Origin: a virus
Taxonomy: Duplodnaviria; Heunggongvirae; Uroviricota; Caudoviricetes
Direction: 5' to 3' (one strand)
IMG/VR virus record: IMGVR_UViG_2558860290_000008
Span: 1-36,050 of that record
Length of the DNA: 36,050 nt
Below, one piece after another: positions 10,056 to 35,836 of the stretch. Each line of letters opens with the position of its first letter. The stretch's first letter is position 1. Under the pieces are notes generated by a model that worked only from the letters and a program-made list of their open reading frames with translations, made no database searches and was not told where the DNA came from. Position numbers and translations under genes: made by a program.

Positions 10056-11276
10056 TTACCCTTTACGGTTTGCCCAGAATTCAGCGTTTTGTTTGTTCAG
10101 GGAAGCGATACTGGTCATGCCCATGTTTGGGCGCTGTGCATCGCCGGTGGTGGCGCGGGTGTTTCGCCCTTTGGCAATCTCAGACACGGCATTAAACGCC
10201 ATGTTGACCGATTGTTTCGGTAATTTGCGGATATCCGCATCACCGACTATCTGGCGAACCAGCGTTTTGTCAGCGGAAGCCAGAACCTCGCGTTTGAACG
10301 CGGTCGGTTTCATCTTACGGCTCAGATCGATACCCGGAACGATAACTTCGGCACGCCAGGCTGAGTCACCAGTAATCGTGGTTTCCTCTTCATCATCCTC
10401 GCCGTCACCGGTCGGATTATCGTCAGGCTTATTATCGTTATCGCCCGTGGCATTTCCTTCCAGCTTAGCCAGCAGGGCTTTCAGTAATGTTTTGAGGTCA
10501 TCATCACTGTCGACGGTTGGACCTCCACCCATCTCTGGTGCTTTGTCCGGTAGTGGTTGCTGCGGGGACAGGTTGATGTTGAGATTAACGCCCTGCGGCA
10601 AATCCCCCTCATCTCCTGTAACCGATGCGGGAGCCGACTCCACCAGTTCGTTCATGGTGTCGGCATCTCCTGTCTTGATGGCTGCACGCATGCGGTTCCA
10701 CCAGTTTTTCTTTTGATTTGCCATTGTGTCTCTGTCTCCAATTGCACAACGATTTCCGGCTCTGCCTTTGGGGACAAGAGCCACATGGTTTCCGGTAATA
10801 TCGACCTGCTCGGCTTTACCTGGCTCGGTCTGCTCGTACTCCGCGTCATAGCCGCACGACACTTCACGCAGGCCATCTTCGATAAGCTGAATGGCGTTTT
10901 CGTCTTTGACGATAAGGTCAGCCAGCATCAAATCAGACTGGTCACCAGTCCCGCGCCGCACATTCTGAAGATGCCCGACAGCAAGCTCTTTCCAGTTCTC
11001 GGGATTTACCAGCCGCACATTCCCGTTTTCATCTTCAGGATGCAGGATCGTGATGCTCATCCCTTCGAATGAGGCGAGCGTGGCCGGATTGAATACCTGC
11101 TCAGGAGAACGCGTTACGACTATCTCACCGAGCTTGTCGGGTTTGAGGTTTGGCAGATCGGCAGCGCCGTAGAGCTGCTTACCCGTTCGACCTATCGGCA
11201 CGTCTTTGCACAGCAGCGAGCCGTCAGCCAGCTGATAGCGGGTTTCCCCCAGCCGGGTATTGAAAAAATATTTCAT
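10056..11276 (-). CDS. Putative prohead protease or scaffolding protein
   Basis: 406-aa ORF between the MuF-like and capsid genes, with an acidic low-complexity central region (GDGEDDEEETT) typical of scaffolds. Confidence 0.4.
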   Translation of the reverse strand: MKYFFNTRLGETRYQLADGSLLCKDVPIGRTGKQLYGAADLPNLKPDKLGEIVVTRSPEQVFNPATLASFEGMSITILHPEDENGNVRLVNPENWKELAVGHLQNVRRGTGDQSDLMLADLIVKDENAIQLIEDGLREVSCGYDAEYEQTEPGKAEQVDITGNHVALVPKGRAGNRCAIGDRDTMANQKKNWWNRMRAAIKTGDADTMNELVESAPASVTGDEGDLPQGVNLNINLSPQQPLPDKAPEMGGGPTVDSDDDLKTLLKALLAKLEGNATGDNDNKPDDNPTGDGEDDEEETTITGDSAWRAEVIVPGIDLSRKMKPTAFKREVLASADKTLVRQIVGDADIRKLPKQSVNMAFNAVSEIAKGRNTRATTGDAQRPNMGMTSIASLNKQNAEFWANRKG

Positions 11277-11290
11277 GGTTTACCTGCGAT

Positions 11291-12064
11291 TCAGGCGAGA
11301 TAAGAATGAGGGTTGGGGAAGACGATTTCTTTGTAACAGCGGCAGTTCGGCAGCTCACCAGCGTGACCGGTCATACCGTCAAGCGTTGGAGGTCGGCCCC
11401 ATTCGACAAACTTGCCCTCCATCTCACGATGAGAGTGCCGGACATCGCCATCTTCGGCTGTACGCCAGATATAACCATTCGAACCAATTGACAGCGCACG
11501 CGCCTGATCGAGCGCGCCGGTTGCGCGTCCAAGTTCGGTACGGGCGATAAGGTTCGCTCGCGAGCGTGACACGTCACCTGACGCCGCTATCTCTTTCGCG
11601 AATGACTCAGCCCGCCCGCCAGTCACAACTGCCTCGATGGCTTTGTTCTGAATGTCATACACCCGATCGGCGGCCTCAAGAGGTAGCGATTTGATGTACT
11701 TAATCTGCTCGGCAACGATGGATTTCATCACCTGGCCTACCGGGGCGCAGTCAACCATGTTGCGCAGCTCTGCACTGATGTTCCGGCTGTGTTGACGCCA
11801 CTGCTTTTCATTCTGGCGCGCTATGTCTGCGGTAAAGTTCTCAGCTACCTTCGTCGCCCAGGGGGTGATGATTTCGCTGTAGCGCTCCAGCGCATCCATT
11901 ATTTCGGTTACGCTATCGTTTGAACCATCGTAGCGCCCATTTACGATATCCCCGACCGCCCGCGCTATCTGCCGTAGGCTCGTTCGATATCGGATCTCCG
12001 CCTGGCGACTCTGGCGGTTTGTCGCCAAGTTCGCCGATGCCTGGCGGCGCTTCGTCTTCGGCAT
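11291..12064 (-). CDS. Head morphogenesis protein, phage Mu F-like minor head protein
   Basis: C-terminal RTELGRA ... PNCRCYKE motifs typical of MuF/SPP1 gp7-like proteins; located after the portal gene. The annotated start overlaps the portal gene by about 150 nt, so the true start is uncertain. Confidence 0.6.
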   Translation of the reverse strand: MPKTKRRQASANLATNRQSRQAEIRYRTSLRQIARAVGDIVNGRYDGSNDSVTEIMDALERYSEIITPWATKVAENFTADIARQNEKQWRQHSRNISAELRNMVDCAPVGQVMKSIVAEQIKYIKSLPLEAADRVYDIQNKAIEAVVTGGRAESFAKEIAASGDVSRSRANLIARTELGRATGALDQARALSIGSNGYIWRTAEDGDVRHSHREMEGKFVEWGRPPTLDGMTGHAGELPNCRCYKEIVFPNPHSYLA

Positions 12065-13382
12065 TCTCTATGTCCTCGTCGGTAATGGATGCCCCGATGC
12101 CGGTTACGTCAGAATTTTCGCGCAAATCGGTCATAGCGGCTTTCAGTGTCATCAGACCATCACCCAGCGCCGTACTGATTGCGTTGGTAGTGTTTAACGC
12201 CACCGTTGAGCGATCGACATCAGACATTTGCCAGAGCGGGTTAAACTCAAACGTGAAATCGTCCGGCAGCGGCTTACCGAGTTCCGAGCGGTGCATAATG
12301 TCCAGTATCCGGCGCATCGGCATCCGTAAGCGGCGCTCCTGCAATGAGCTCACCCGGTCGTAATAGTTGGCAAGATCTGCATCACCGGTAGAAAATCCTT
12401 TCGGGGACTGTCCGAACAACCGCACCAGTGGAATACCAACAGCGCCACTAATCTGTTCTGCAAACTGCGATAGGATGTCATCCAGACCACTGAAGCTGTA
12501 CTGATGCGTTTCAAACTTATCCCGCGAGTCCATGAGCGTCATGCCTTCATTGCTCTGGAACTGGCGGATCAGGTCGATGTTCTTCAGCAACGCTTCGAAA
12601 GCTGGGCCACCAAGCGCGATAATCTCGCGCAGCTTCTCCACGCTGTAGGTGCGCAGATGCGCTTTGTAGACCAGCTGAGCCGCGCCGACAGTGGCGCTGT
12701 CGAACGCAGTAAGCCGATCCCAGATTCGCTCTACAACCGACATTCCCCATTCGTTCTCGGTCATCTTCTGCTGGAATGGCAGCGTGACGCCATCGAAGCG
12801 AATCAGGCGGCTGTGATGGATGCGCCAGGCCGGGATGCCCGTTGCAGTGGTCACCACGTCGTAAAACTCAGGTTTGCCGAGATCTGGCCCCATCTCTTTA
12901 ATGCGGCGGGTCAGGGCCGGGTTAATCATCCAGCGGTCGAGCGGGAGAATGCCCTTAAACTTGCCTTCTCCAATGGTTTCGAGCCGCAGCGGGGTCATTG
13001 GTGCCTGCCCCTCGATCATGATGAAGCCGACCGCGCCGCCGTAGAGGCGAGACCATTTCAGCACGTCGTTCAGCGCATCCCAGATTTGCAACTCATCCAG
13101 TTGTGATTCGAGAATGCCACGATCTTTTGCATCAATTTCCGAAGTGATGCGAATGCCTTTGCGGGTCATATCATCCGGGATAGCATCGACCGCTTCGCCG
13201 ATAATCCAGGACGATCGATAGGACCATTCCACCAGCATGCGGTTACGACTGGTGAAATTAGCCCGGTAGGTGGATGCTGAGTGCTGGTTAGGTGTCTGCA
13301 TCCCCACGCGGGCAACAAAGTTCTCATAGCCATCAGCGGTGGCCTGTGCCGTTCGCCGCGTGGCTTGTTTGTTTCGTGCCAT
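11913..13382 (-). CDS. Portal protein
   Basis: 489-aa ORF immediately downstream of the large terminase gene, with a 1-nt TGATG stop/start overlap. Confidence 0.7.
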   Translation of the reverse strand: MARNKQATRRTAQATADGYENFVARVGMQTPNQHSASTYRANFTSRNRMLVEWSYRSSWIIGEAVDAIPDDMTRKGIRITSEIDAKDRGILESQLDELQIWDALNDVLKWSRLYGGAVGFIMIEGQAPMTPLRLETIGEGKFKGILPLDRWMINPALTRRIKEMGPDLGKPEFYDVVTTATGIPAWRIHHSRLIRFDGVTLPFQQKMTENEWGMSVVERIWDRLTAFDSATVGAAQLVYKAHLRTYSVEKLREIIALGGPAFEALLKNIDLIRQFQSNEGMTLMDSRDKFETHQYSFSGLDDILSQFAEQISGAVGIPLVRLFGQSPKGFSTGDADLANYYDRVSSLQERRLRMPMRRILDIMHRSELGKPLPDDFTFEFNPLWQMSDVDRSTVALNTTNAISTALGDGLMTLKAAMTDLRENSDVTGIGASITDEDIENAEDEAPPGIGELGDKPPESPGGDPISNEPTADSAGGRGYRKWALRWFKR

Positions 13383-15004
13383 CAGGCCTGTCTCCCTAGC
13401 AGCTCCCAGATGTTCAGGGCTGAATTCATTGGCGCGTAGCTGATCATCACCGAGTCGGCAAGGTTTGGCGACCGGGTTCCATCAGGCTGTTTATCAATAA
13501 CGATTTTTCCCACACCATTAATGGAATAGGTCGGCTGCGAAAGCTCGATGATGAGTTTATCTTTGAGTGCCATGCTACTGCTGATTGAGATGATTTCGTC
13601 CGGGTTGTAAGCCATACCTTCAACCACGGCGCGCCAGGTATTCTGAAAAAGTTTACGTAACCGCCACCAGCTCTGGGCTTTGGCGTTAGCGAAGAAGTCC
13701 TTGTTCAGGCGGGCGGCCTGTCCGTTGTCACCGCGCACCGCTTCATCATCCGGATCAAATACCGCGCCACTACCTCGAAACGGTGTTGCGAGTATTGACG
13801 GTCGGCGCGCAGCGTTACGCAGTTCGTTGATAGCGCGTGCATCGCCGCGAACGCCAGCGCCCAGCCCGTCCTCATCAAAGCGAAACTCTTCGAGGTTGTC
13901 CTGTTCGCAAAAACCGAAGACCTTCTCGACGGACTGATAAATGTCGCTGCCCACACCGGACCATTCCCGCACATTTTCCAGGAGGAAGCCATGACGGGTG
14001 GAAAAGGCATTTTTGTCCCTGCCTTCATCAGCGACATCCATCGCGCCAAGTCGTTTGCCTGTTGGCTGGATACCCAGTTTGATATGCGCATCAACGGCAG
14101 CCTGTACCCATTCGGATGGAATCAGGACGCCTTCCGCTGATGCGCTGTAGTTCAGATCAAGTTCCTGTGCCACCACCACCGGATTATCGATTTTCTCGCA
14201 TTCCCTGCGATACCACTCTTCATCCTTGCGAGGATCATCCCGCCAGTGGAATGTGAATACCGGTATCTTCCCGCCGTGACGCTTCTGCGCGAACGGGTTC
14301 GCCATGCCGTTAACCGAACTCAGGTCGATACGGCAACGCGTCGTTTGTGACAACGCCGCATCAATCAGCAGAGGACGCTGAAGGAATGCAGCCTCATCAA
14401 CCAGATAAAGCGTGGTACGGTCACCACGACCAATATTATCGCCAGCCTCGCCTTTGATAACGGCACCAGTTTCAGGAAACTCAACACGCATATATGGCGC
14501 GTGCTTCTTCTCGCTCCACGAACCGCGAAACTCTACAGGTAGTGTTTCCACGAACTTGCGCGCCTTCCAGAACAATGCTTTCGGGTCACCGGTGCTGTCG
14601 ACGTATTCCTCTTTACGGGAGCCGAAACCGATAACCATTTCTTTGTTGAAGAGACAAAGCGAGCAGGCCAGTCCGATCGCGGTCCAACTGAGCCCCATTT
14701 CACGGGATTTTTCGGTAATACCATTCTCCCGATTACCCCAGCGTTCCATAATCCAGTGGATCCACTCCTCCTGCTTAGGGAAGAGTAAAAACGGAATGGT
14801 CACCGGCAGGCCATAATCAATATTACGCGGGTCCGTTGTCATGCCCCAGTCGATGATGAACTGAGCCGGGTTGGTCCGGTAAAACTGTTTTAGTGCTGGC
14901 AATATTTCAGGGTTCTGGCGAATGCGCTGTAAGCGTTCCATCCGCCATTCAAAAACCATCTGGTAATCAGGATGTTTAAAATCGAAGGGGAATGGTAACG
15001 GCAT
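13382..15004 (-). CDS. Terminase large subunit
   Basis: 540-aa ORF following the small terminase subunit, with an N-terminal ATPase-like region and a C-terminal nuclease-sized region; upstream of the portal gene. Confidence 0.8.
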
Positions 15005-15006
15005 AC

Positions 15007-15558
15007 TTAGCCCATCATTTTTCTATACGCCTCTGCAGCCTGCTCCGGCGTTAAGTTGGTAATTTCTGTTCTGACTGGTCCTCCGTCAGCACCAGTCACT
15101 TCATTTTTGACATTGTCTTTAAACGCCTGAACAGAAACATGACGCCCGAGCAACTCAAGGTTTTTAACCTTATCAGGCCATTTGATTTTCTTCAGGAGAG
15201 CAGCACTATCTGCTGATGCCATCTCGACGACATCCATTCCTGATAGCGTTGTACGCCACACCTTAGGCCAGTCTTTAATGGGCTTCAGTTCGCCATTGGC
15301 AAGCAGAATGTCAAGCACGTCCATCTGATCGATTTCAATAAGGCGATTAAGTACATATTCTGCATTAATACCAACAAGATCATTGCGTTGCGCTTTCAGT
15401 TCGGCGATTCTTAACTTGATGTCAGGTTTTGACAGGTTTTCGGATGCGGTACGGTTAGCTGTCTTTGCGCTGTACCCCGCCCGAATAGCCGCTTGCGTGG
15501 CGTTTAAATCGATGAGGTACTCGCGACAGAACATTTCTTGCTTGTCGGTGAGTGCCAT
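15007..15558 (-). CDS. Terminase small subunit
   Basis: 183-aa ORF with the N-terminus [30 protein letters not shown] (helix-turn-helix typical of small terminase subunits), directly upstream of the large subunit. Confidence 0.7.
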
Positions 15559-15819: not shown

Positions 15820-16113
15820 TCACCACCCAAGCGACTCAACTGATATCTAGTTCATCATTACTAGGACTAAAAGTAGATTCCTGACATTGAGAACCTCTTT
15901 ATCCGCTTGTGGGGATATCAGTTAAGTTATCCCGTGTAGGGTATAAGCCATTGTCGAGACCACTCATTGAATGGCCTCTGCAATAACCGATGTCTTTCCA
16001 TCAGTCCGCCACCACAAAGAATCTTTTTTGCCATAAGGCAGGAGGTTCATCTTTCAGTGGCTGCCAGTGTTATTTCCCCACTTACTGGCTTGGGTTGTTT
16101 CGCTGTACTGCCG

Positions 16114-16656
16114 TTAATTGGTGAGTCCGGGTATTACGGTTTGCCCGTGCTGTTCAAGGCGTTCAATTCTAGCCAGCAGCTGTGGCTTCTTAATTTTTCC
16201 CCAGCGATTAAGCAAGCGGCCTGACATGCTGGCAACATCCTTCTCTTTCATGTACTCCAGCATTACGGCATTTCTCTCTTCTTCAAATTGACGATGACCA
16301 ACCTGAAGCATGGCGTACATCCAGTTGAATGCGTTGATGTAAGCAATTTTGATACGCATTGCTTCTTTTTTGGTGTAGGACATAACCAAAAGCATCAACC
16401 CATCCTTACGTAGCCGATAGAATTTTTGTGGCTTACCATTCTGTAACTCATTGTTTTTATAGCAAACCTCAAAATTGAGTTTTGTATCAAACTCTTCAGG
16501 ACAAGCAGCGATAGTTCTTTCTACATCACGCACAACGTTGTCATGTCGCTTACGAAATGCTTTCGCCACCATAAATGAATCGGTGACAGGGTCATTGTTG
16601 GTAATAAAAACCAGTTCTTTGAAATCAATGCCGTCAACGATAGTTGGATAATTCAT
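16114..16656 (-). CDS. rha: Rha-family phage regulatory protein
   Basis: N-terminal motifs (VTDSFMVAKAFRKRHDNVVRD ... KIAYINAFN) resemble the Rha family; located between the lysis and terminase genes as in P22-like phages. Confidence 0.6.
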   Translation of the reverse strand: MNYPTIVDGIDFKELVFITNNDPVTDSFMVAKAFRKRHDNVVRDVERTIAACPEEFDTKLNFEVCYKNNELQNGKPQKFYRLRKDGLMLLVMSYTKKEAMRIKIAYINAFNWMYAMLQVGHRQFEEERNAVMLEYMKEKDVASMSGRLLNRWGKIKKPQLLARIERLEQHGQTVIPGLTN

Positions 16657-16804
16657 CGGTAATTACCTTTTAGTGATGAACCTTGTCACACAGGATTCCG
16701 GCCCACAGAAAGGCACCGATAACCAAACCGGCATCCTCAAGGGTCATCCTGAAAGGCTCTGTGTTCATAAGTCGCGCGTGTGAAGCGCATTTACTGAGGA
16801 CATA

Positions 16805-16828
16805 AAAAAGCCCCGCTTCTGCGAGGCA
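16805..16828 (-). terminator. Intrinsic terminator downstream of the lysis cassette
   Basis: Minus-strand GCCTCGC-AGAA-GCGGGGC hairpin followed by TTTTTT. Confidence 0.7.
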
Positions 16829-16869
16829 TTTTCCTGAAAGTCACTTGTTAAATTTCAGTGAAGTTAAAA

Positions 16870-17364
16870 TTATTTTAAGCACTGAGTCCTGATGTACTCC
16901 TGCAGGTAGTTAACCTGCGCGGTTATCCTGTCGATTCCACTTCGGAGACGGTAATAATTGAGTTCAGCATCTGCTGTAAGTCCTGGGCTTTCTCCATCGC
17001 CCATGCTGCTGGCTCCGGTCGTTGACTTTGCACAGGTGGCGGCGACTTGCAGGCGCTTACGACCAGCAGAAACATCAGCACGGAGACTTTCGATAGTCGC
17101 GTTAGCATCAGCAAGCTCCTTTGTATATCTGGCATCGAGTTCTGCTACGTCACGTTGACGCCTCTGCATATCAGAGATCGTCGCCATAGCCGAATCTAAT
17201 GCCATAGCGTTTTCGTCGCGCTGTTTTTTGTATTCAATGGCTTTATTGTGGTAATGATTAGCTGACCAGACGAGAGAACCGAATAAAGTCAGGAGGAAAG
17301 CAGAAATAACCAGCTTATAGCGAAGTTTCATTAACCACCCCGCCAGCTTCTTTGAATTTGGCAA
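16870..17364 (-). CDS. Rz: Rz-like i-spanin
   Basis: N-terminal transmembrane segment followed by a coiled-coil-like periplasmic domain, directly after the endolysin gene. True start may be the ATG at 17331. Confidence 0.7.
   Translation of the reverse strand: MPNSKKLAGWLMKLRYKLVISAFLLTLFGSLVWSANHYHNKAIEYKKQRDENAMALDSAMATISDMQRRQRDVAELDARYTKELADANATIESLRADVSAGRKRLQVAATCAKSTTGASSMGDGESPGLTADAELNYYRLRSGIDRITAQVNYLQEYIRTQCLK
16923..17108 (-). CDS. Rz1: Rz1-like o-spanin, embedded in the +1 frame of Rz
   Basis: MLTRLSKVSVLMFLLVVSAC lipoprotein signal with lipobox, followed by a proline-rich segment (KSPPPVQSQRPEP); entirely inside the Rz gene. Confidence 0.6.
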   Translation of the reverse strand: MLTRLSKVSVLMFLLVVSACKSPPPVQSQRPEPAAWAMEKAQDLQQMLNSIITVSEVESTG

Positions 17365-17791
17365 TCAGACTATCGATCTTGTGTTCATACTGACCGTAGC
17401 CAGCACCGGGCAATGAAGCCCAAATATTGCTGCAACGATCGATAGCCTGACGGATATCACCGCGATCAATCATCGGTAAAGCGCCACGTTCTTTAATCTG
17501 TTGCAGTGCCACAGCGTCCTGGCTTTTCGGAGAGAAGTCTTTCAGGCCAAGCTGCTTACGATAGGCATCCCACCAACGGGAAAGAAGCTGGTAGCGTCCG
17601 GCGGCTGTTGATTTGAGTTTGGGGTTTAGCGTGACAAGTTTGCGAGGGTGATCTGAGTAATCAGTGAATAGCTCTCCGCCTACAATGACGTCATAACCAT
17701 GATTTCTGGTTTTCTGACGTCCGTTATCAGTCCCCTCTGACCACGCCAGCATATCGAGGAACGCCTTACGTTGATTATTGATTTCCACCAT
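17315..17791 (-). CDS. R: Endolysin, lambda R-type lytic transglycosylase
   Basis: 158-aa protein beginning [39 protein letters not shown], which matches my recollection of lambda R almost exactly; C-terminus diverges. Confidence 0.9.
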
Positions 17792-18098
17792 CTTCTACTC
17801 CGGCTTTTTTAGCAGCGAAGCGTTTGATAAGCGAACCAATCGAGTCAGTACCGATGTAGCCGATGAACACGCTCGTTATATAAGCGAGATTGCTACTTAG
17901 TCCGGCGAAGTCGAGAAGGTCACGAATGAACCAGGCGATAATGGCGCACATCGTTGCGTCGATTACTGTTTTTGTAAACGCACCGCCATTATATCTGCCG
18001 CGAAGGTACGCCATTGCAAACGCAAGGATTGCCCCGATGCCTTGTTCCTTTGCCGCGAGAATGGCGGCTAACAGGTCATGTTTTTCTGGCATCTTCAT
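17775..18098 (-). CDS. S: Holin/antiholin, lambda S-type with dual start
   Basis: 107-aa protein beginning [39 protein letters not shown], with the Met1-Lys2-Met3 dual-start motif; matches my recollection of lambda S. Confidence 0.9.
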
Positions 18099-18339
18099 GT
18101 CTTACCCCCAATAAGGGGATTTGCTCTATTTAATTAGGAATATGGTCGGTTACTGATAGAACAAATCCAGGCTACTGTGTTTAGTAATCAGATTTGTTCG
18201 TGACCGATATGCACGGGCAAAACGGCAGGAGGTTGTTAGCGCGACCTCCTGCCACCCGCTTTCACGAGGTCATGTGTAGAAGGCCGCAGCGTAACTATCA
18301 CTGATGAATTCAGGATAGCCAGTGGCTACGGCTCAGTTA

Positions 18340-18415
18340 TGGTGCTGGTTAACGGACTTGAACCGCTACCCATTCGCTTACAAGGCGACCGCTCTACCAT
18401 TGGAGCTAAACCAGC
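18340..18415 (-). tRNA. tRNA-Thr (anticodon UGU), 76 nt
   Basis: Hand-folded cloverleaf: 7-bp acceptor stem (GCUGGUU/AACCAGC), D arm GCUC/GAGC with a GG loop, anticodon loop CUUGUAA, T arm with TTCAAGT loop, discriminator A and encoded CCA. Confidence 0.7.
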
Positions 18416-18420
18416 ATATT

Positions 18421-18495
18421 TGGCGGGACAGCGTGGACTCGAACCACGATAAGAAGGTTAACAGCCTTCCGTAATGACCTTTATACGACTGACCC
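18421..18495 (-). tRNA. tRNA-Asn-like (anticodon GUU), 75 nt, with one acceptor-stem mismatch
   Basis: Hand-folded: anticodon stem GAAGG/CCUUC, loop CUGUUAA, T arm CGUGG-TTCGAGT-CCACG, encoded CCA. Acceptor stem has a U-U mismatch at 4:68 and the D stem is only 3 bp. Confidence 0.5.
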
Positions 18496-18496
18496 A

Positions 18497-18540
18497 AATA
18501 AAAAAGCCACCGTTGCAACTTAAGAGTCACTAACGGCAGC
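18497..18540 (-). terminator. Intrinsic terminator immediately downstream of the putative late promoter (tR'-like)
   Basis: Minus-strand GCUGCCGUU ... AACGGUGGC 9-bp stem followed by UUUUUUAUU, ending 1 nt before the first tRNA. Confidence 0.65.
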
Positions 18541-18550
18541 TTACCTTCTA

Positions 18551-18580
18551 ATTATGGCTAAATGGATAATTGCATGTCAA
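18551..18580 (-). promoter_or_regulatory. Putative late promoter (pR'-like) and likely site of Q action
   Basis: Minus-strand TTGACA, 18-nt spacer, CATAAT; overlaps the Q stop codon, with the terminator hairpin starting within a few nucleotides of the predicted start site. Confidence 0.55.
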
Positions 18581-19076
18581 GGCTTTTAACAGCAACATGC
18601 TTAACTTTCTCAACACGTTTACGCATTTTGAAAGCATTTTGCATTGGCTGATATAAAACAAATAATGACGCTTTCAGGATGTCGTCAATTTCGTTTCTAC
18701 AGGTTGCCAGTGAAGGTTTTCTCCATCCCTCGCCACCACGTCCACACATCTTGCGTGGCTTTGCAGTCGCGTGATAGTAGGATGCAATTGCTCGCTTAGA
18801 TGAACCATGAGCGTAGTAGCTGAGGAGGATGCCAAAGGCTTTCTTGTCAATGTACATGACGGAATCGACGACCTGAGAAATCAACATTCCATCATCATCA
18901 TTGCACATTGGCCTTGTCATAACTCTTCCCGGCTCTACGCTCTCCATGAACTTCGCTATTACGCTGCTCATGCGCTTTTCCAGGCGGCCTGAGTAAACCC
19001 ATGCACCCCACAGTTCAAGCCAGCCATTCAGCCAATCGTGCTGTTCTTTGGTGAGGTTTAGTTCTCTTATGCTCAT
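18558..19076 (-). CDS. Q: Late-gene antiterminator Q (phage 21 / 933W-type family)
   Basis: 172-aa protein with WLELWGAWVYSG ... RPMCNDDDGMLISQVVDSVMYIDKKAFGILLSYYAHG, resembling the WGAW ... CCDDD pattern I recall for 21/933W-type Q. Located between the nin genes and the late promoter. Confidence 0.7.
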   Translation of the reverse strand: MSIRELNLTKEQHDWLNGWLELWGAWVYSGRLEKRMSSVIAKFMESVEPGRVMTRPMCNDDDGMLISQVVDSVMYIDKKAFGILLSYYAHGSSKRAIASYYHATAKPRKMCGRGGEGWRKPSLATCRNEIDDILKASLFVLYQPMQNAFKMRKRVEKVKHVAVKSLDMQLSI

Positions 19077-19261
19077 GGTCTACCCCTCTTGCCCTGTTTG
19101 ACCATCAGGACGCCGTTAACTATTACGTGACGCTCACCTTTGCTGTCTCGGTTGTACTTGAGCACTGTTCCTCTTGCACAGGAAAGCATCCTCGCCACTT
19201 CGGTCTGATTACCTCGTGTCTGGATAAGAAGCTCTGGTATCGTTTGAATTGTGGCGTTCAT
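19073..19261 (-). CDS. ninH: NinH-like protein
   Basis: 62-aa protein MNATIQTIPELLIQTRGNQTEVARMLSCARGTVLKY, resembling lambda NinH; ATGA overlap with rusA. Confidence 0.7.
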   Translation of the reverse strand: MNATIQTIPELLIQTRGNQTEVARMLSCARGTVLKYNRDSKGERHVIVNGVLMVKQGKRGRP

Positions 19262-19620
19262 GCGTTCTCCAGTTCGGTGATTTTTATTCCAAGCCTTCCG
19301 CCTGGTACTTTCACGCCACGAATTACGCGAATGTCATCGAATTGCTCGTCGTCTTCCGCAAATCCGGCGTGGATAAGGGAGTCGAGTAAACCTTTCAGGA
19401 TGTTGTCGAGGTCGCGGCGGCGGGAGTCTGGAACGTCTGCGATGACTTTGATACGGAGTCGTTATTTGGTGAAAATGTCTAACTTAAGTTGGCGGATGAT
19501 TTGCTGAACGTCTTTTCGGTATTTCTGGCCTTTATCGCTGATGTAGTATTGGCTTCCCCGTCTTCGCCAGTAGGTATTCACCGACGGCGGGTATGGAAGC
19601 ACAAACTGATATTCGTTCAT
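19258..19620 (-). pseudogene. rusA: rusA Holliday-junction resolvase homolog interrupted by an in-frame TAA at 19464..19462
   Basis: Minus-strand translation MNEYQFVLPYPPSVNTYWRRRGSQYYISDKGQKYRKDVQQIIRQLKLDIFTK-stop-RLRIKVIADVPDSRRRDLDNILKGLLDSLIHAGFAEDDEQFDDIRVIRGVKVPGGRLGIKITELENA. Both halves are in one frame and align with RusA, including the RRRDLDN active-site motif. Confidence 0.75.
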
Positions 19621-19907
19621 GACTTAATCTTCCCCTCCTTCAGCAGTATCGCCTGCGTCCTGATCACGCCTTCGAGGTGGTAAAGTCTGGCGTCTTTGTT
19701 GTCGAGATTATGGGTGCGTCGGTCGATTTCATCGTGACACGCGCTACAAGCCCATGCGCCGATCAGGTCGTCAGGCTTCATTCCAGTTCCGCAAATTCCA
19801 GCCATCCGGTAATGTGCCAGAACTGTAGTTTCAGGATTGCCATTGCATACGCCGTAAATACGTACCTGGCATTCTCTGCCGCGCGCTTCTTTGCGTAGGT
19901 TAGCCAT
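19617..19907 (-). CDS. YbcO-like protein (DUF1364-type, putative nuclease)
   Basis: 96-aa protein with RECQVRIYGVCNGNPETTVLAH ... CSACHDEIDRR, resembling the DLP12 prophage ybcO product as I recall it; ATGA overlap with rusA. Confidence 0.5.
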   Translation of the reverse strand: MANLRKEARGRECQVRIYGVCNGNPETTVLAHYRMAGICGTGMKPDDLIGAWACSACHDEIDRRTHNLDNKDARLYHLEGVIRTQAILLKEGKIKS

Positions 19908-20176
19908 TATGGTTCACTCCAGTAATTCTCAATTGCAACAGCCATTCTCTGCATCCACTCAGCCAGCTTTAACGCGGCTTCTCTTTCAGAACCACATTTA
20001 GGGAAATCCTTCATTTCCATGCTGGCCTTATATGTTCTGAATGCCAGGTCTCCGGTAATAACCAACTCCTGATCAAGCACCGAGCGTTTATTCCGGTGCT
20101 GAACGTAATAGACAGATTCAGTCCGCATTTCTTCTCTGTCTTTTTTGAAGGAAATAAGCTCAGAGAAATCACTCAT
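19907..20176 (-). CDS. Hypothetical protein (89 aa)
   Basis: ORF translationally coupled on both sides (ATGA overlaps with ninF and the YbcO-like gene); no family recognised. Confidence 0.5.
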   Translation of the reverse strand: MSDFSELISFKKDREEMRTESVYYVQHRNKRSVLDQELVITGDLAFRTYKASMEMKDFPKCGSEREAALKLAEWMQRMAVAIENYWSEP

Positions 20177-20339
20177 CGTCTTCTTCCTCGTACATTGAGC
20201 TATTCGGATCGCTCATCAGTTCTGCGCAGCAGTGCTCACACACGTGAACTTCCAGCACATGCAGCTTCTGACCGCAGTTAGCGCACGTTAAAGCTCGCTC
20301 GACACTTCCTTGTTCGTAACTTCGATTTGGGTCAATCAC
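20169..20339 (-). CDS. ninF: NinF-like protein (GTG start)
   Basis: Hand translation [56 protein letters not shown] (56 aa), resembling lambda NinF; below the ORF-track size cutoff. Confidence 0.65.
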
Positions 20340-20518
20340 CTTGTTTTCCTCGCACGTTCTCTAAGCCACCGGATATCCCACAGGTGAGCCGTGTAATTGA
20401 AGGTTTTTACGTCAGATTCTTTTGGGATTGGTTTGCGTTTATTTCTGGAGCGTTTCGTTGGAAGGTATTTGCAGTTTTCGCAGATGATGTCGGTGATACT
20501 TCGTCGCTGTCGTCTCAT
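20336..20518 (-). CDS. ninE: NinE-like protein
   Basis: [60 protein letters not shown] (60 aa), resembling lambda NinE; start at the internal Met of ORF 20336..20608. Confidence 0.75.
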
Positions 20519-21042
20519 GCTGCCCTCCTGACGCCCTGCCCGATCGCCATCAATGCCGCTTTGGATACGGTAGTAAACATCCGTCGAGGACTGATGAACG
20601 GTCGCCAAATCAGCAGCATGGAGCCTTTGCTGTTTCCCTTCTTCTCCAGCCCTGTCGATGGTTCGATAAAATTAATCCGTCCATCAGTGATAATGCGAAC
20701 TTCGTCGACACTCTCCAGAGCCTTGCTGAACCATCCGACTGACATATCCTCTGGCACAAGCATAACTACCGTCTGTCGCTGTTGTATGCACTGCTCAGCG
20801 GCTTTTTCCACCCACGGCCTGATATTGCTGTACGGTGGGTTATTCCAGATTGCACCGTGGCTTATCCACTCAGAATTTAGCGCGTCGTCGGCCTCAGTTA
20901 ACCAGTGAGCGCACAGAGCATTTTTGTCGCTCGCTGCCGAATCCAGCCAGAATCCAAACTCAATATCCAGTGCATCAAAAAGCCAAAGCGGCGTTTGCCA
21001 GCAGTCCTTGTCGTGTGCTGGCGTATTTGATTTGATAGTCAT
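20515..21042 (-). CDS. DNA N6-adenine methyltransferase (phage Dam-like)
   Basis: NNPPYS catalytic motif; start taken at [26 protein letters not shown] (ATG 21042) with an ATGA overlap to ninB. Confidence 0.7.
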
Positions 21043-21479
21043 GCAGCCCGATCTCCCCATCGCGCTTTCCATTCGAGAGCTAGTCGCGCTTCGTCTGACC
21101 ACTTAACGCCACGCTCTGTACCGAATGCCTGTATAAGCTCTAATAGCTCCGCAAATTCGCTTACACGCATCCTGCTGGTTGACTGGCCTATTACCACAAA
21201 GCCATTCCCGGCAAGGTTAGGAACAACGTCCTGCTGCTTTAATGCTGCTGTAAAAACGCACTTCCAGCTTTCTGCATCCAGCCAGCGACCATGCCATTCA
21301 ACCTGACGAGAGACGTCACCAAGGCAAGCCCAAAGCTTCCGATTTTGGTCTAAGCTGCGGTTGCGTTCCTGAATGGTTACTACGATTGGTTTGGTTGGGT
21401 CTGGAATGATTTGCTGTACTGCGTGAATAGCGTTCTGCTGATGGATGTGGCTTCTTAGTTCAAACGTTAGTTTCCTCAT
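21039..21479 (-). CDS. ninB: NinB recombination protein
   Basis: 146-aa protein MRKLTFELRSHIHQQNAIHAVQQIIPDPTKPIVVTIQERNRSLDQNRKLWACLGDV, near-identical to lambda NinB as I recall it. Confidence 0.9.
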   Translation of the reverse strand: MRKLTFELRSHIHQQNAIHAVQQIIPDPTKPIVVTIQERNRSLDQNRKLWACLGDVSRQVEWHGRWLDAESWKCVFTAALKQQDVVPNLAGNGFVVIGQSTSRMRVSEFAELLELIQAFGTERGVKWSDEARLALEWKARWGDRAA

Positions 21480-21696
21480 GGGATGAACTCCAGTTTGCGA
21501 TGTTAAATTCCCATTTAATTACCTTTGCATACCCAATTTTGAACCCATCAATACCTATCCACCGATTGCCACTCCAATAAGCTGTACCACTTTGCTTGAA
21601 ATGATGTGGATGCCTAGATTGAGTGGTCACAGTTACAGGTAAATATGGCTTCGGGTATTCCCCATTCCCTGGATAACCAGATTTAATTTTGCTCAT
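21460..21696 (-). CDS. Hypothetical protein (78 aa, Trp-rich)
   Basis: ORF between the replication and nin genes; no family recognised. Confidence 0.45.
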   Translation of the reverse strand: MSKIKSGYPGNGEYPKPYLPVTVTTQSRHPHHFKQSGTAYWSGNRWIGIDGFKIGYAKVIKWEFNIANWSSSHEETNV

Positions 21697-22019
21697 TGAT
21701 ACCCTCTCTCACTTAATCGCGCCCACGCTTCGTTAAACTCTTCTCGGGTTGCGCCGGATTTTCTTTCTTCAAACATCATGCATTCGCTGATGTCTCCCCA
21801 TGACTTTGGTCGCTTTTCAGCGAACAGATCATCCCATTCGAATACCCAGCGTCCTGATTTTCGGTAGTGGTAAATGGTCAGCCATGTTGTGCTGTTCGCT
21901 GGATACCCATAGAGAACTTCGACTTTTTGATCACGGTCTTTATGCTTTTTCAGCAGGATAAAGCCAGCAACCAGCGAAGCTCCGGCAAGAATGATGATTG
22001 GTATTTGCCAGTCAGCCAC
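21693..22019 (-). CDS. Hypothetical membrane-anchored protein (108 aa)
   Basis: N-terminal transmembrane helix (IPIIILAGASLVAGFILL) then a soluble domain; 4-nt overlap with the downstream gene. Confidence 0.5.
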   Translation of the reverse strand: MADWQIPIIILAGASLVAGFILLKKHKDRDQKVEVLYGYPANSTTWLTIYHYRKSGRWVFEWDDLFAEKRPKSWGDISECMMFEERKSGATREEFNEAWARLSERGYQ

Positions 22020-22031
22020 GCTTACCTCCGC

Positions 22032-22238
22032 TTAACTCACAAAACGCCACGCCATTTTTGCTACGACAACAGGCATAACACCGATAATCCCCCACAGGAA
22101 AATGCTACCTAAAAGCATATTCCCCAGGTCTTTACCTTCGCCTACCAACCGGACAAAACAGCCAGCAACCACAATGAACGTCGCCACCATCCACAGAGCA
22201 CCGAGAAGCCTCAATGCAGAGAAAATCAACTCAACCAC
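22032..22238 (-). CDS. Hypothetical small membrane protein (68 aa, GTG start)
   Basis: Two predicted transmembrane helices; GGAGAG ribosome-binding site; first gene after the tR2-like terminator. Confidence 0.45.
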   Translation of the reverse strand: MVELIFSALRLLGALWMVATFIVVAGCFVRLVGEGKDLGNMLLGSIFLWGIIGVMPVVVAKMAWRFVS

Positions 22239-22253
22239 GATTTACTCTCCCCC

Positions 22254-22284
22254 AAATAAAAAGGCCTGCGATTACCAGCAGGCC
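22254..22284 (-). terminator. Intrinsic terminator after the helicase gene (tR2-like position)
   Basis: Minus-strand GGCCTGC-UGGUAAUC-GCAGGCC hairpin followed by UUUUUAUUU. Confidence 0.65.
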
Positions 22285-22310
22285 TGTTATTAGCTCAGTG
22301 ACGTAGATGG

Positions 22311-23687
22311 TCATACGTCAGCCCCTTGTGCATATCGTCTGCCACGCGCAGCAGGTGCATTTGATGCTGTGCAAATCTGTCTGGCTTCATCCTGGTCACA
22401 TGCAACAAAGTGTCCGTTACAGAACCGCTGGTAAACCGTACCAAGCGAGCCAAAACGGTTTTTCGTCACAATGATTTCAGCAAATGGCGCGGCGCTACTG
22501 TTCTCGTCATATACAGCTTCCCGATAGAGCATGATGATTGAGTCTGCGTCCTGTTCAATGCTTCCTGAATCACGCAAATCTGCGTTTGTCGGGCGTTTGT
22601 TTGGTCGCTTCTCAACATCGCGTGAAAGCTGACTCAGGGAGATAACAGGCGTTTTCAGGTCTTTCGCCATCGCCTTCAGGCTTCCGGAGATGTGAGCAAT
22701 TGCGAGATCGTTGCGATCTGCTTTCGGCTTCTCAATCAGGCCAAGATAATCCGCCATGATGAGTGACAGGTTTGGATTTTCCTGTTTGTGCCGTTCTGCG
22801 ATTGAGCGTATTTCTTCGACCGATAACCGCGAGGCATCGACTACCCATACATCCAAATCCGCAAGCTGACTCATGCCGTTAGCAACACGCGCCCAGCCTT
22901 CGTCATCCATCGATGCAGGATTTCGCAGTACGCTAACCGACATCCTCCCGGCGTTGGCAATGCTTCGCTCTGCAATCTGCAATGCGCTCATTTCCATTGA
23001 GAAAATCAATACCCCGCGCCGGACGTCAGAACCAGGAATAACACGGCTTGCAACGCCTTCGGCAATCTTCAGCGCCAGTTCGGTTTTCCCCATACCAGGA
23101 CGAGCAGCGATTATCACCAGGTCTTCCGCGTTCATCCCTCCGGTGATGGCATCAAGTTCTTCGATTCCGGTCTTCAGGGTATCGGACTCTTCTCCGTTCC
23201 TCAGACGCCTGTCAAGCGTGTCAGTGTAGTCAGTAATGATTTCCCCTAACCGTACAGGTTTAACCTCGTCACGGGGCTTTCTGATGGCTGAAAGACGCTT
23301 TACAAGCTCATCCATCGCCTGACTCGATGCGTCGATGGTTCCGCTCTGAATTGGTTCACGCATTTCATCCATGATTTCCAGCACCAGACGGCGGTGATAG
23401 TTATCCGCGACCATTCCTGCATATCCCTTCAGGTTTGCGGCACTCGGGCAGTTTTTGCTGGTCATCAGGATTGACGTGAAATGCTCCTCTCCGCACGCCT
23501 CGGCAACCATCAGCGCGTCGATTAGGTTTCTGTTTCGCGCCTGCTTGCGGATAACCTCGAAGGCTTTCCGGTAGAGCGGAATTGAAAACGCTTCCGGCTC
23601 CAGCGTTGCCAGAACGTCGCTGGCGGTTGGTGTTAATCCACCAATCAGCAGGCCACCGATAACGCTCGCTTCGATATCCTGTTTCAT
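22311..23687 (-). CDS. Replicative DNA helicase (DnaB-like, P22 gene 12-type)
   Basis: 458-aa protein with a Walker A motif ([15 protein letters not shown]) and DnaB-like C-terminal domain features; follows the O-like initiator. Confidence 0.85.
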
Positions 23688-24505
23688 GCAATCCCCCTGT
23701 CTGCAAACTTCCCTTCCCGAACTCCCGTTAACGAATCTTCCCTCAGCAGGTAATCAAAATCGGCCGTCCAGCCAGTGTCGTTGTCTCCGAAGTAAAACGG
23801 CTTGGCCTGATGTACAAACGCCCTGACATACGCTCTGAAACCGTCCACGTTTGGCGTTTTCAGTTGCGGGATGATTTTCTTCAGGCGGCGTTTGCGTTTC
23901 TCGTTGACCGCAACAGCGTGTGGCAGTCTGTCACCGACTTCGGTGTTGTAGGCGTTCAGGAAGGATTCGTAGTCGATTCGTTCTGCCTTGCGACGTTCAG
24001 GTTTAACCTGCCCATCGCCGCCCCCGTTAGGGGGTAAGGGGGTATTTGTATTTATTGTCTTTTGTATATTGTCTTTTGTGTTTAGCTGACTTGGCTTATA
24101 CCCATTAGCCGACTTGGCTAATGTTTTATTAGCTGTTTTAGCTAATGTTAAGCTATCCTGGCTAATCCACTGCGAAACCACCTTGTTCACTCCGATTTTC
24201 ACGCCATCAGCAATGAGGAATTTACGCTCAATAAGCTGGCGCTTGGCAGCGCAAACATGAGTGTGATGAATACCTGTCATGGCTGCTATCTGCGTGTTTG
24301 TGAGTCGATCCATCGGCTTATTGAATCCGTATGTCTTGCGCATGATAGCGAGCATCACCTTCAACTGCCGGACGGTTAAATCAGCCATCAGCAGACTGTC
24401 GGTAATCTCGTTAGCAACGCGCATGAAACCATCTTCGGTATCTGCCACGCGATGCTCCACGACCTCCAGTTGAGGCCTGTAATCAGCTAACTTAACGACG
24501 CCCAT
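23684..24505 (-). CDS. Replication initiation protein (lambda O / P22 gene 18-like)
   Basis: 273-aa protein with an N-terminal helix-turn-helix region; the gene contains origin iterons and an AT-rich stretch, as lambda O does. Confidence 0.75.
24040..24166. repeat. Replication origin: four iterons of about 19 bp plus an adjacent AT-rich region with direct repeats
   Basis: TTAGCTGACTTGGCTTATA (24082), TTAGCCGACTTGGCTAATG (24106), TTAGCTGTTTTAGCTAATG (24129), TTAAGCTATCCTGGCTAAT (24148); upstream ATTGTCTTTTGT x2 and a CCCCCGTTAGGGGGTAAGGGGG tract. Confidence 0.7.
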
Positions 24506-24651
24506 GTTTCACTCCTGCTTTGGCTAGTCTGTAAACACCAACAAGGCGCTCTGCGAACGCCCTGTTATTTGCTGCGGCTACCACTAATCCCTCAGGTGAA
24601 TCAGGGTGTCGAATCTCTTCTTTTTCCTGGTATTTCTTACGACGTTTTGTC
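24493..24651 (-). CDS. Possible small ORF between cII and the replication gene (52 aa)
   Basis: Hand translation [53 protein letters not shown]; overlaps the O-like start by 13 nt; below the ORF-track cutoff. Confidence 0.3.
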
Positions 24652-24687
24652 ATAATTACTCCTGTGGATTGATCCAGTCTTTCTACA

Positions 24688-24966
24688 TCAGGCCTCGAAG
24701 AATTCGCCGTTCTTCGGGGCTTTTTCTTTTGTCAGCATTCTTGCTACTTGCTTAGCCAGTTCCGCCAACTCCTCGTCTTCAACACCCCATTCCAGCACAG
24801 CCAGAAGCATGGCCATCTTTGGGATAAAGCTGTCTTTCCATCGCGAAATTTGCGATTCATTAATCCCTAACGCGTCGGCAACCTTTCGCTGACCACGTAC
24901 AGCAATTCGATTCAGGATGTTGCTTGTAATTGCATTCGCTTTCTTGCGAGTACTTGTAAGTTGCAT
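24688..24966 (-). CDS. cII: cII-like transcriptional activator
   Basis: MQLTSTRKK ... ESQISRWKDSFIPKMAMLLAVLEWGVEDEE, homologous to lambda CII but not identical; upstream RBS and start context (AAGGAAATACTTACATATG) match lambda. The ORF-track N-terminal extension was rejected. Confidence 0.8.
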   Translation of the reverse strand: MQLTSTRKKANAITSNILNRIAVRGQRKVADALGINESQISRWKDSFIPKMAMLLAVLEWGVEDEELAELAKQVARMLTKEKAPKNGEFFEA

Positions 24967-25045
24967 ATGTAAGTATTTCCTTAGATAACAATTGATTGAA
25001 TGTATGCAAATAAATGCATACACCATAGGTGTGGTTTAATTTGAT

Positions 25046-25382: not shown

Positions 25383-26099
<717 letters not shown>

Positions 26100-26211
26100 T
26101 CGGCAAGGTGTTCTGGTCGGCGCATAGCTGATAACAATTGAGCAAGAATCTTCATCGAATTAGGGGAATTTTCACTCCCCTCAGAACATAACATAGTAAA
26201 TGGATTGAATT

Positions 26212-27051
26212 ATGAAGAATGGTTTTTATGCGACTTACCGCAGCAAAAATAAAGGGAAAGATAAGCGCTCAATAAACCTGTCTGTTTTCCTTAATTCTCT
26301 GCTGGCTGATAATCATCACCTGCAGGTTGGCTCCAATTATTTGTATATTCATAAAATCGATGGAAAAACTTTTCTCTTTACCAAAACAAATGACAAGAGT
26401 CTGGTTCAGAAGATAAATCGCTCTAAAGCTTCAGTTGAAGATATTAAGAACAGCCTCGCGGATGACGAATCATTGGGATTCCCATCTTTTTTGTTTGTTG
26501 AAGGCGACACCATTGGTTTTGCCAGAACTGTTTTCGGGCCGACCACATCCGATCTGACAGATTTTTTAATCGGGAAAGGAATGTCATTAAGCAGTGGAGA
26601 GCGCGTTCAGATAGAGCCACTGATGAGGGGAACCACCAAAGACGATGTTATGCATATGCATTTCATCGGCCGAACAACGGTGAAGGTAGAAGCCAAGCTA
26701 CCTGTATTTGGCGATATATTAAAGGTCTTAGGGGCAACAGATATTGAAGGGGAGCTTTTTGACTCATTGGATATAGTCATTAAGCCAAAATTTAAAAGGG
26801 ATATAAAAAAGGTTGCCAAGGATATTATTTTTAACCCGTCACCTCAATTTTCAGACATTAGCCTGCGGGCAAAAGATGAGGCCGGAGATATTTTAACAGA
26901 ACATTATCTATCAGAAAAAGGCCATCTCTCAGCGCCTCTGAACAAGGTCACCAATGCTGAGATAGCTGAAGAGATGGCATATTGCTACGCAAGAATGAAA
27001 AGTGATATACTGGAATGTTTTAAAAGGCAGGTGGGCAAAGTTAAGGATTAA
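26212..27051 (+). CDS. rexA: RexA (Rex exclusion system)
   Basis: 279-aa protein MKNGFYATYRSKNKGKDKRSINLSVFLNSLLADNHHLQVGSNYLYIHKIDGK, matching my recollection of lambda RexA; AT-rich. Confidence 0.9.
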   Translation: MKNGFYATYRSKNKGKDKRSINLSVFLNSLLADNHHLQVGSNYLYIHKIDGKTFLFTKTNDKSLVQKINRSKASVEDIKNSLADDESLGFPSFLFVEGDTIGFARTVFGPTTSDLTDFLIGKGMSLSSGERVQIEPLMRGTTKDDVMHMHFIGRTTVKVEAKLPVFGDILKVLGATDIEGELFDSLDIVIKPKFKRDIKKVAKDIIFNPSPQFSDISLRAKDEAGDILTEHYLSEKGHLSAPLNKVTNAEIAEEMAYCYARMKSDILECFKRQVGKVKD

Positions 27052-27066
27052 TTATCAGGAGTAATT

Positions 27067-27501
27067 ATGCGGAACAGAATCATGCCTGGTGTTTACATAG
27101 TAATAATTCCTTACGTTATCGTAAGCATTTGCTATCTCCTTTTCCGCCACTACATTCCTGGTGTTTCTTTTTCAGCTCATAGAGATGGTCTTGGGGCGAC
27201 ATTGTCATCATATGCAGGAACCATGATTGCAATCCTGATTGCTGCCTTGACGTTTCTAATCGGAAGCAGAACGCGCCGACTGGCCAAGATTAGAGAGTAT
27301 GGGTATATGACATCGGTAGTTATTGTCTATGCCCTTAGTTTTGTTGAGCTTGGAGCTTTGTTTTTCTGCGGGTTATTGCTTCTTTCCAGCATAAGCGGCT
27401 ACATGATACCCACTATCGCCATCGGCATTGCCTCTGCATCGTTCATTCATATATGCATCCTTGTTTTCCAACTATATAATTTGACCAGAGAACAAGAATA
27501 A
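27067..27501 (+). CDS. rexB: RexB (membrane component of Rex exclusion)
   Basis: 144-aa polytopic membrane protein MRNRIMPGVYIVIIPYVIVSICYLLF, matching my recollection of lambda RexB. Confidence 0.9.
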   Translation: MRNRIMPGVYIVIIPYVIVSICYLLFRHYIPGVSFSAHRDGLGATLSSYAGTMIAILIAALTFLIGSRTRRLAKIREYGYMTSVVIVYALSFVELGALFFCGLLLLSSISGYMIPTIAIGIASASFIHICILVFQLYNLTREQE

Positions 27502-34485: not shown

Positions 34486-34677
34486 ATGACCGATACCAGC
34501 CTGATTCCTGAGAAAGAAGTGATGAACAAGCTCGGTGTTTCATCACGTCAGACAATCTGGAACTATACCAAACGACACGGATTTCCGAAGCCAGTCAGAA
34601 CCCACCCCAAATCATACCTTCGTGAAGCTGTTGAAGGGTGGATTCTTAACGGTGGCGTTAATCAGAAATGCTCCTGA
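34486..34677 (+). CDS. xis: Excisionase / AlpA-family DNA-binding protein
   Basis: 63-aa protein with a helix-turn-helix (LGVSSRQTIWNYTKRHGFPKP) typical of AlpA/Xis; converges on int, with the two 3' ends overlapping by 20 nt. Confidence 0.7.
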   Translation: MTDTSLIPEKEVMNKLGVSSRQTIWNYTKRHGFPKPVRTHPKSYLREAVEGWILNGGVNQKCS

Positions 34678-35836
34678 TGTGCCAGAACAATTTATCAGCG
34701 TGAAGCTCATACGCTTTGCGCTGAGCCTCTATCCAGTCGTGTTTATTGTATACGGACATTATCCCGCCAAGTTCATGACCGAGCATTCGCTCAGTAACAT
34801 GAGGCTCGACATTCATCTCGGACAGACGTGTAACAAGCGTTCTTCTGAAATCATGTGTTCGCCAGTAACCCAGATCCATCCCTCCCCTTATTCTATTTAC
34901 GAATCGGTTGGCTGCAGCGATGCTGATCGGTTTGTTTATGTCTTCTCCAGGGAAAAGAACATCATTGTACGTTGTCATGGCCTTTTCGAGAAAAGGCTTA
35001 ATTTGTTCGAAGATTGGACGGCGGATAACATTACCCATCTTGCTATGCTCTTTCGGTACGGTCCATACGTTGTCCAGCAGGTCAAATTCTGTCTTTGTTG
35101 CCAGCCTAAGCTCTGAGAGCCTCGCCCCCCACAGCATAAGCATCTGATGAAGGAGCTTATTTGACGTAGACGCACGGCTTCTTTCAATAGCAAGCCAAAT
35201 CTTAGCCAGTTCGTGATACGACAGTACCCGATCCCCTACCTCAGCGCGGGAGCCGAAGTCCCTTGGTTGGATGCTCATAATTGCGCAACTATCTATCAAC
35301 TGACGCCGCATGCACCAACTTATTGCTGATCTTAGTTGACTTAGCACCTGCCTTGCTCGGCGTGGATTATCTCTTTCTTCTTCGGTAAGCAGGTCAACCC
35401 ATTGCTTAACCGTGATAGAAGATGCCGGACGATTAGGAAAGGCGTCATGCATGCGCTTCATAACCGTTGATCGGTAAAGTGCCTGGGTCTTTTCTCTGAG
35501 AGTTGTAGAGACGTAGTTGTCGAACCAGTAGTCGAGACACTGAGCGACCGTCATGGAGTTCTCCACCTTCTCTTCAAAATAGGTGCGTGGATCCGTTCCT
35601 GAGAAATAGAGCTTTCGCAAGTCAGCAGTGATCTGTCTGGCATCCTTCAAAGACAGGGATGGGTATCGACCAAGCCCAAGTCGATTAGGCTTGCCATGCC
35701 AGCGATAGCGGTACTGGAACTGGATGACCCCCTTCGGTGAAATTCGTACGCTGAGGCCATCGGCATCAGCCACTTCTTGTGGGCCCGAATATGGTTTACC
35801 ATAAATAGTACGCAGTTTTGTGTCGCTTATAGCCAT
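34658..35836 (-). CDS. int: Tyrosine integrase (P4-type family)
   Basis: 392-aa protein with an N-terminal arm-binding-type domain and C-terminal catalytic-region motifs (WRTHDFRRT, HELGG ... VYNKH-type R/H/Y); sits at the prophage end. Confidence 0.9.
   Translation of the reverse strand: MAISDTKLRTIYGKPYSGPQEVADADGLSVRISPKGVIQFQYRYRWHGKPNRLGLGRYPSLSLKDARQITADLRKLYFSGTDPRTYFEEKVENSMTVAQCLDYWFDNYVSTTLREKTQALYRSTVMKRMHDAFPNRPASSITVKQWVDLLTEEERDNPRRARQVLSQLRSAISWCMRRQLIDSCAIMSIQPRDFGSRAEVGDRVLSYHELAKIWLAIERSRASTSNKLLHQMLMLWGARLSELRLATKTEFDLLDNVWTVPKEHSKMGNVIRRPIFEQIKPFLEKAMTTYNDVLFPGEDINKPISIAAANRFVNRIRGGMDLGYWRTHDFRRTLVTRLSEMNVEPHVTERMLGHELGGIMSVYNKHDWIEAQRKAYELHADKLFWHIRSISD

Follow-up and report, generated by a model that had tools for sequence, protein, structure and literature searches.

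The rusA gene in the nin region of a mosaic lambdoid prophage of Escherichia coli was found to be interrupted by a single in-frame ochre codon. This is best explained as a real and recent spontaneous loss-of-function nonsense mutation, which changed Ser53 to a stop (TCA>TAA) in a small, non-essential DNA-repair gene, and we assign this reading a probability of roughly 0.86. The window, by which we mean the whole stretch of 36,050 nucleotides that was analysed, is the entire contig AHHL01000262.1 of the E. coli draft assembly GCA_000498195.1. Its rusA is an ordinary pseudogenised copy of a well-known gene in the canonical slot, and nothing about it is new in kind.

The rusA frame starts with the ATG at 19620..19618 and runs through 52 open codons to the TAA, past which the same frame stays open for 67 codons further, to the TGA at 19260..19258 (Table 1). 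Its translation reads MNEYQFVLPYPPSVNTYWRRRGSQYYISDKGQKYRKDVQQIIRQLKLDIFTK*RLRIKVIADVPDSRRRDLDN...ELENA*, and the RRRDLDN motif corresponds to codons 67-73 (19422..19402), on the 3' side of the stop. The initial annotation had described a RusA-like frame of 120 codons interrupted by this TAA only, with a match to RusA on both sides of the stop, both halves in one frame, and intact, translationally coupled neighbours. All of this was borne out: by the sequence and its translation, by Pfam searches with each half alone, by a gap-free DNA alignment with four intact homologues, and by the end-to-end Pfam matches of ybcO and ninH, which are joined to rusA through ATGA overlaps at both junctions. 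In the source assembly the 52-residue fragment is annotated as a RusA protein, probably EST77630.1 according to the accession list for the 52-aa sequence.

Table 1. Features of the rusA locus and of the surrounding prophage. Positions are those of the window.
Feature	Position	Strand	Remarks
rusA pseudogene	19620..19258	-	Frame of 120 codons for a RusA-family Holliday-junction resolvase, interrupted by one stop
Premature ochre TAA, codon 53	19464..19462	-	Ancestral codon TCA (Ser)
N-terminal rusA ORF of 52 codons, translatable	19465..19620 (19462..19620 with stop)	-	From the ORF list
C-terminal 67 codons of rusA, untranslated	19261..19461	-	R69, D70, D72, N73, K76 and D90/D91 encoded
rusA catalytic codons	D70 19413..19411; D72 19407..19405; D90/D91 19353..19348	-	
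ybcO (DUF1364, putative nuclease), upstream	19617..19907	-	Intact; PF07102, 150 bits, profile positions 2-91 of 92
ninH, downstream	19073..19261	-	Intact; PF06322, 85.7 bits, profile positions 1-60 of 60
Late-gene antiterminator Q	18558..19076	-	Intact; PF06530, 90 bits
nin region			Order: ninB, dam, ninE, ninF, 89-aa ORF, ybcO, rusA, ninH
Genes beyond Q			Two tRNA genes, then holin, lysozyme and Rz genes, the Rha-like gene, terminase and head genes
tRNA-Asn(GTT)	18421-18495	-	Between Q and the holin gene
tRNA-Thr(TGT)	18340-18415	-	Between Q and the holin gene
Rha/ORF11CD3 regulatory-type gene	16114-16656	-	Flanked by lysis cassette and terminase genes
Head and contractile-tail module	315-15558	-	Like vB_EcoM-606R2 and SEN34
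Lambda-like immunity operon cI-rexA-rexB	25386..27501	+	cI-type HTH + S24 peptidase; RexA and RexB full-length
O/DnaB-type replication genes			In the window prophage
Integrase	34658..35836		

Each half of the frame was recognised by itself as belonging to the RusA family. Against the Pfam RusA profile (PF05866), for which the gathering cut-off is 22.8 bits, the N-terminal half alone scored 24.6 bits over profile positions 1-41 and the C-terminal half alone 35.5 bits over positions 77-123. An intact 120-aa homologue, which equals the repaired window protein except at residue 120 (V for A), scored 62 bits. This homologue was aligned without gaps to the structure of E. coli K-12 RusA (1Q8R_A; 1-119 on 1-119, E=3.1e-26), and the repaired protein was also collinear with PDB 2H8C. 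In length (120 codons) and collinearity, the window frame therefore agrees with its closest known counterparts, the RusA proteins of lambdoid phages and prophages as represented by rusA/ybcP of the K-12 prophage DLP12 (1Q8R, 2H8C), HK97 gp67, HK620 rus and mEpX1 RusA. With the lambdoid relatives it shares the slot ybcO-rusA-ninH-Q with its ATGA overlaps, as well as the codons for R69, D70, D72, N73, K76 and D90/D91, all encoded at the aligned positions in the DNA but absent from the product. It differs from them in having TAA instead of TCA at codon 53, which leaves residues 1-52 only. The K-12 gene is intact but transcriptionally silent, whereas the window copy is transcribable but not translatable at full length. 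The locus is thus RusA by sequence and lacks the uninterrupted reading frame of about 120 aa; because of the TAA at codon 53, it is a rusA pseudogene and not a functional member of the family.

The ancestral codon, which the initial annotation had proposed to identify by alignment with intact homologues, proved to be TCA (Ser), as all four sequences in the alignment (two E. coli prophage copies and phages mEpX1 and HK620) carry TCA at codon 53. The stop arose by a single C>A transversion at nt 158 of the coding strand, where base 19463 on the plus strand of the window is T and that of the relatives is G, and this is the only disruptive difference in the alignment. The closest intact allele differs at 2 of 363 nt, namely the codon-53 base and one other, and intact relatives with TCA at codon 53 are 98-99.4% identical. 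On a wider scale, annotated RusA genes in 960 or more complete E. coli genome records show 95-99.4% identity to the 363 nt of the window gene. Of 53 records from the phage collection, 47 lie within 95-99% identity, among them HK97-like phages, CUS-3, HK620 and mEpX1, the last two with nucleotide identities of 97.8-98.6%. A TCA codon can become a stop by either of two single-base changes, which holds for few codons.

Downstream of the stop, no amino-acid change, frameshift or further stop was found in the window rusA. The downstream half is likewise free of further amino-acid changes in every stop-bearing allele, save for the common A120V polymorphism. Since no further decay has accumulated 3' of the stop, the lesion is young, and the locus has the make-up of a young nonsense pseudogene, with a stop one base away from intact orthologues and nothing else decayed. 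The intact downstream half fits a recent event and has no power to argue for continued translation. A recent inactivating mutation, the first of three options left by the initial annotation, is therefore well supported by the single C>A change relative to TCA, by the lack of downstream decay, and by the location of the catalytic residues beyond the stop. Creation of a promoter or terminator by the mutation was also considered and rejected, as a single weak promoter-like match was obtained where chance alone would give 0.8, and a terminator was absent.

The genes surrounding rusA are tightly packed. The TGA of ybcO overlaps the rusA ATG as ATGA, the ninH ATG overlaps the normal rusA TGA in the same manner and is preceded by its own GGAG 6-9 nt upstream, and the last 4 nt of ninH are shared with Q. 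All of the 10 other contig genes tested matched Pfam families. Since the neighbours ybcO, ninH and Q did so over essentially their full length, the contig consensus looks sound, and the prophage shows no general decay.

These matches bear on the possibility that the strain truly carries TCA and that the A in the draft consensus is a sequencing or assembly artefact. The source is a fragmented draft, of which our contig is number 262. The exact TAA haplotype of the window was present in this one contig only and in no other sample of the public collection, and its nearest intact allele is separated from it by the stop base and one other base only, all of which would be compatible with an error. 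However, a substitution outside a homopolymer is presumably the rarest type of consensus error, and the essentially end-to-end matches of the three nearest neighbours speak against a generally poor consensus. Moreover, the same TAA, and also TGA, was found at codon 53 in independent assemblies from other runs, which indicates that such alleles are biologically real. The independent stops and the type of substitution make the sequencing error envisaged by the initial annotation less likely; a small chance is left to it, and we regard it as improbable.

The distribution of the stop was determined in 5,426 complete E. coli genomes by megablast with 55-nt queries centred on the SNP, in which every 28-nt seed word spans the SNP. 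The TAA and TGA versions gave 0 matches each, whereas the TCA version, used as the positive control, was found at 642 places. Exact patterns with TAA or TGA were absent from IMG/VR and from the GTDB species representatives (0 in each), and the TCA pattern gave at least 120 matches in IMG/VR. A stop that is a conserved feature of the family was thereby excluded, as 0 stops stood against 642 places with TCA in complete genomes and against at least 120 TCA copies in IMG/VR. The codon-53 stop is a rare variant. As for related prophages sharing it, none was found in the 5,426 complete genomes or in IMG/VR; the few carriers were other assemblies with other haplotypes.

Those carriers were retrieved by an exact look-up of the 52-aa product, which returned 28 blocks of the public collection. 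TAA at codon 53 was present on two further haplotypes, one differing from the window at 12 sites (L007/L009) and the other at 6 sites, all of them 3' of nt 167 (L008). TGA at codon 53 (TCA>TGA, C>G) was present on a fourth haplotype, at L006:3001-3363 and L010:1277-1639 (sources Logan SRR6111484 and ENA ERZ13616753). This fourth haplotype lies in a different prophage context, in which the replication gene is of lambda-P type, Q has 162 aa, and a 44-aa ORF replaces ninH. The occurrence of TAA on three haplotypes and of TGA on another first suggested a hotspot, and codon-53 stops on at least four haplotypes could, taken alone, hint at something beyond random decay. Real stops were found at other codons as well. 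K46* (AAG>TAG, nt 136) occurs in three DEC1 genomes (L135-L137) and in the IMG/VR locus L015, G86* (GGA>TGA, nt 256) on three haplotypes, and E92* (GAG>TAG, nt 274) on two; at all the loci that demonstrate these stops (L135-L137, L015, L161-L164, L169-L170), the gene is otherwise intact. Exact look-ups of truncated products yielded 12 contigs for 85 aa, 12 for 91 aa and 14 for 107 aa, similar to the 13 for 52 aa. These controls, which are not a formal rate test, argue against a special cause at codon 53. Because K46*, G86* and E92* follow the same pattern, codon 53 was rejected as a mutational or selective hotspot.

Exact-length look-ups of products mix true stops with contig ends. The 46-aa and 53-aa prefixes (10 and 17 contigs, respectively) came from contig ends only, and four of the loci retrieved (L011-L014) are contig-end partials without the stop. 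An insertion or a polymorphic branch, which the ends of these four at nt 156-158 might have suggested, was rejected, as the 46-aa and 53-aa prefixes are contig ends likewise. Ends near nt 157 carry no meaning, because assemblies break often in this multi-copy region and an exact-length look-up selects the position. Short-read assemblies often end inside rusA, at about nt 134-140, 156-160, 255 and 273, and such contig ends (L011-L014, L138-L160, L165-L168, L171-L176) yield 'partial RusA' proteins that mimic truncations.

Like the window allele, K46*, G86*, E92* and the TGA form of S53* are one-base stops in an otherwise intact rusA in nin-region context, and they differ from it in the codon or in the stop triplet. 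The DEC1 prophages with K46* are visibly degraded or truncated, with lpxR directly after ninH in place of Q and the lysis genes, whereas the window prophage looks complete. Nonsense alleles that are rare and clean, and that in some cases occur on several haplotypes, are typical of rusA in general. They are expected for a dispensable gene when very many genomes are sampled and lambdoid recombination shuffles the gene.

The same alleles could be read as the result of selection, if the lysogen or the phage gained from losing RusA, so that nonsense alleles were repeatedly favoured and not merely tolerated. Public data contain at least five different nonsense changes, which affect four codons and in several cases occur on more than one haplotype; all are clean one-base knock-outs of otherwise intact genes. 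Nevertheless, the alleles are rare, at about 1% in IMG/VR (107 of 108 full-length copies were intact and 1 carried K46*) and with none at codon 53 in the 5,426 complete genomes. This rarity is in line with mutation and drift, given that the gene is dispensable and that very many genomes were sampled, and lambdoid recombination can spread one mutation to several haplotypes. We therefore consider selected inactivation very improbable. Only slight credence is also given to the idea that RusA is a recurrent loss target in E. coli prophages, whether because an active phage resolvase is selected against in lysogens or because rare readthrough controls its dose, and not through neutral decay.

The last of the options, a functional in-frame stop at which readthrough or a suppressor tRNA of host or phage would supply full-length RusA at a low level and so limit the dose of a potentially harmful nuclease, is considered extremely improbable. 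It would be in keeping with the perfect preservation of the downstream half in all stop-bearing alleles, with TAA or TGA at codon 53 on four haplotypes, and with the alignment of Ser53, which is not a conserved residue, to Met53 of K-12 RusA, implying that the position tolerates substitution; but preservation downstream is equally expected of a young lesion, and stops on several haplotypes at codons 86 and 92 are not predicted by a site-specific mechanism. UAA is recognised by both release factors, and of the stop codons in E. coli it shows the least leakage. A phage-encoded suppressor tRNA was excluded, as ARAGORN detected only tRNA-Thr(TGT) and tRNA-Asn(GTT) in the window. Programmed readthrough sites are conserved, whereas this stop is absent from the 642 genome places and from at least 120 IMG/VR copies, so that the site needing suppression proposed in the initial annotation found no support.

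We then considered what a recent nonsense mutation, the reading we prefer, would mean for the protein. Ribosomes are expected to terminate at codon 53 after 52 residues, and no active Holliday-junction resolvase would be made. RusA serves as a prophage-borne backup for Ruv, and its residues D70, D72, K76 and D90/D91 are critical, while R69 functions in DNA binding and N73 has a minor catalytic role (PMC1636454). All residues needed for Mg2+ binding, catalysis and the main DNA contact map 3' of codon 53, and the 52-aa fragment comprises the first strand, the flexible loop and the first helix only. From its sequence, the 52-aa product is predicted to be inactive as a resolvase, because the catalytic residues are encoded 3' of the stop and there is no restart before codon 103. 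The catalytic half would not be made separately either, since the earliest in-frame ATG, GTG or TTG after the stop is the GTG of codon 103; the ORF list of the window contains no ORF of at least 30 aa in the rusA frame 3' of the stop. Translational coupling from rusA to ninH through the ATGA overlap is probably lost or reduced, because ribosomes would now halt about 200 nt upstream. The functions of the nin region are non-essential, and the host has RuvABC. For these reasons the loss of RusA is likely to be tolerated by both phage and lysogen, and the allele may persist as a young pseudogene.

The locus should accordingly be annotated as a rusA pseudogene and not as a 52-aa 'RusA family' protein, and the window prophage should not be counted as a source of a backup Holliday-junction resolvase. 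Across E. coli prophages, rusA nonsense knock-outs recur at low frequency, in keeping with the nin region being known to be dispensable.

Several other features of the prophage were observed. Its head and contractile-tail module shares about 95% identity with that of Escherichia phage vB_EcoM-606R2 and 83% with that of Salmonella phage SEN34, and the early, nin and lysis regions (15912-25000) are about 96% identical to those of HK97/HK620/CUS-3-type lambdoid phages. RexA and RexB, encoded 3' of the cI-type repressor gene, are abortive-infection genes. The presence of tRNA genes between Q and the holin gene is shared with some other lambdoid prophages. The place of the antirepressor-like Rha gene, with the lysis cassette on one side and the terminase genes on the other, is unusual for a gene of this type. 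At 19907-20176, the window carries an 89-aa ORF with no Pfam match, followed by ybcO. In many relatives (L008, L014, L140, L145, L147-L148 and L155), ninF is instead followed by one or two HNH/NUMOD4 endonuclease genes and then by a 91-aa variant of the gene that precedes rusA.
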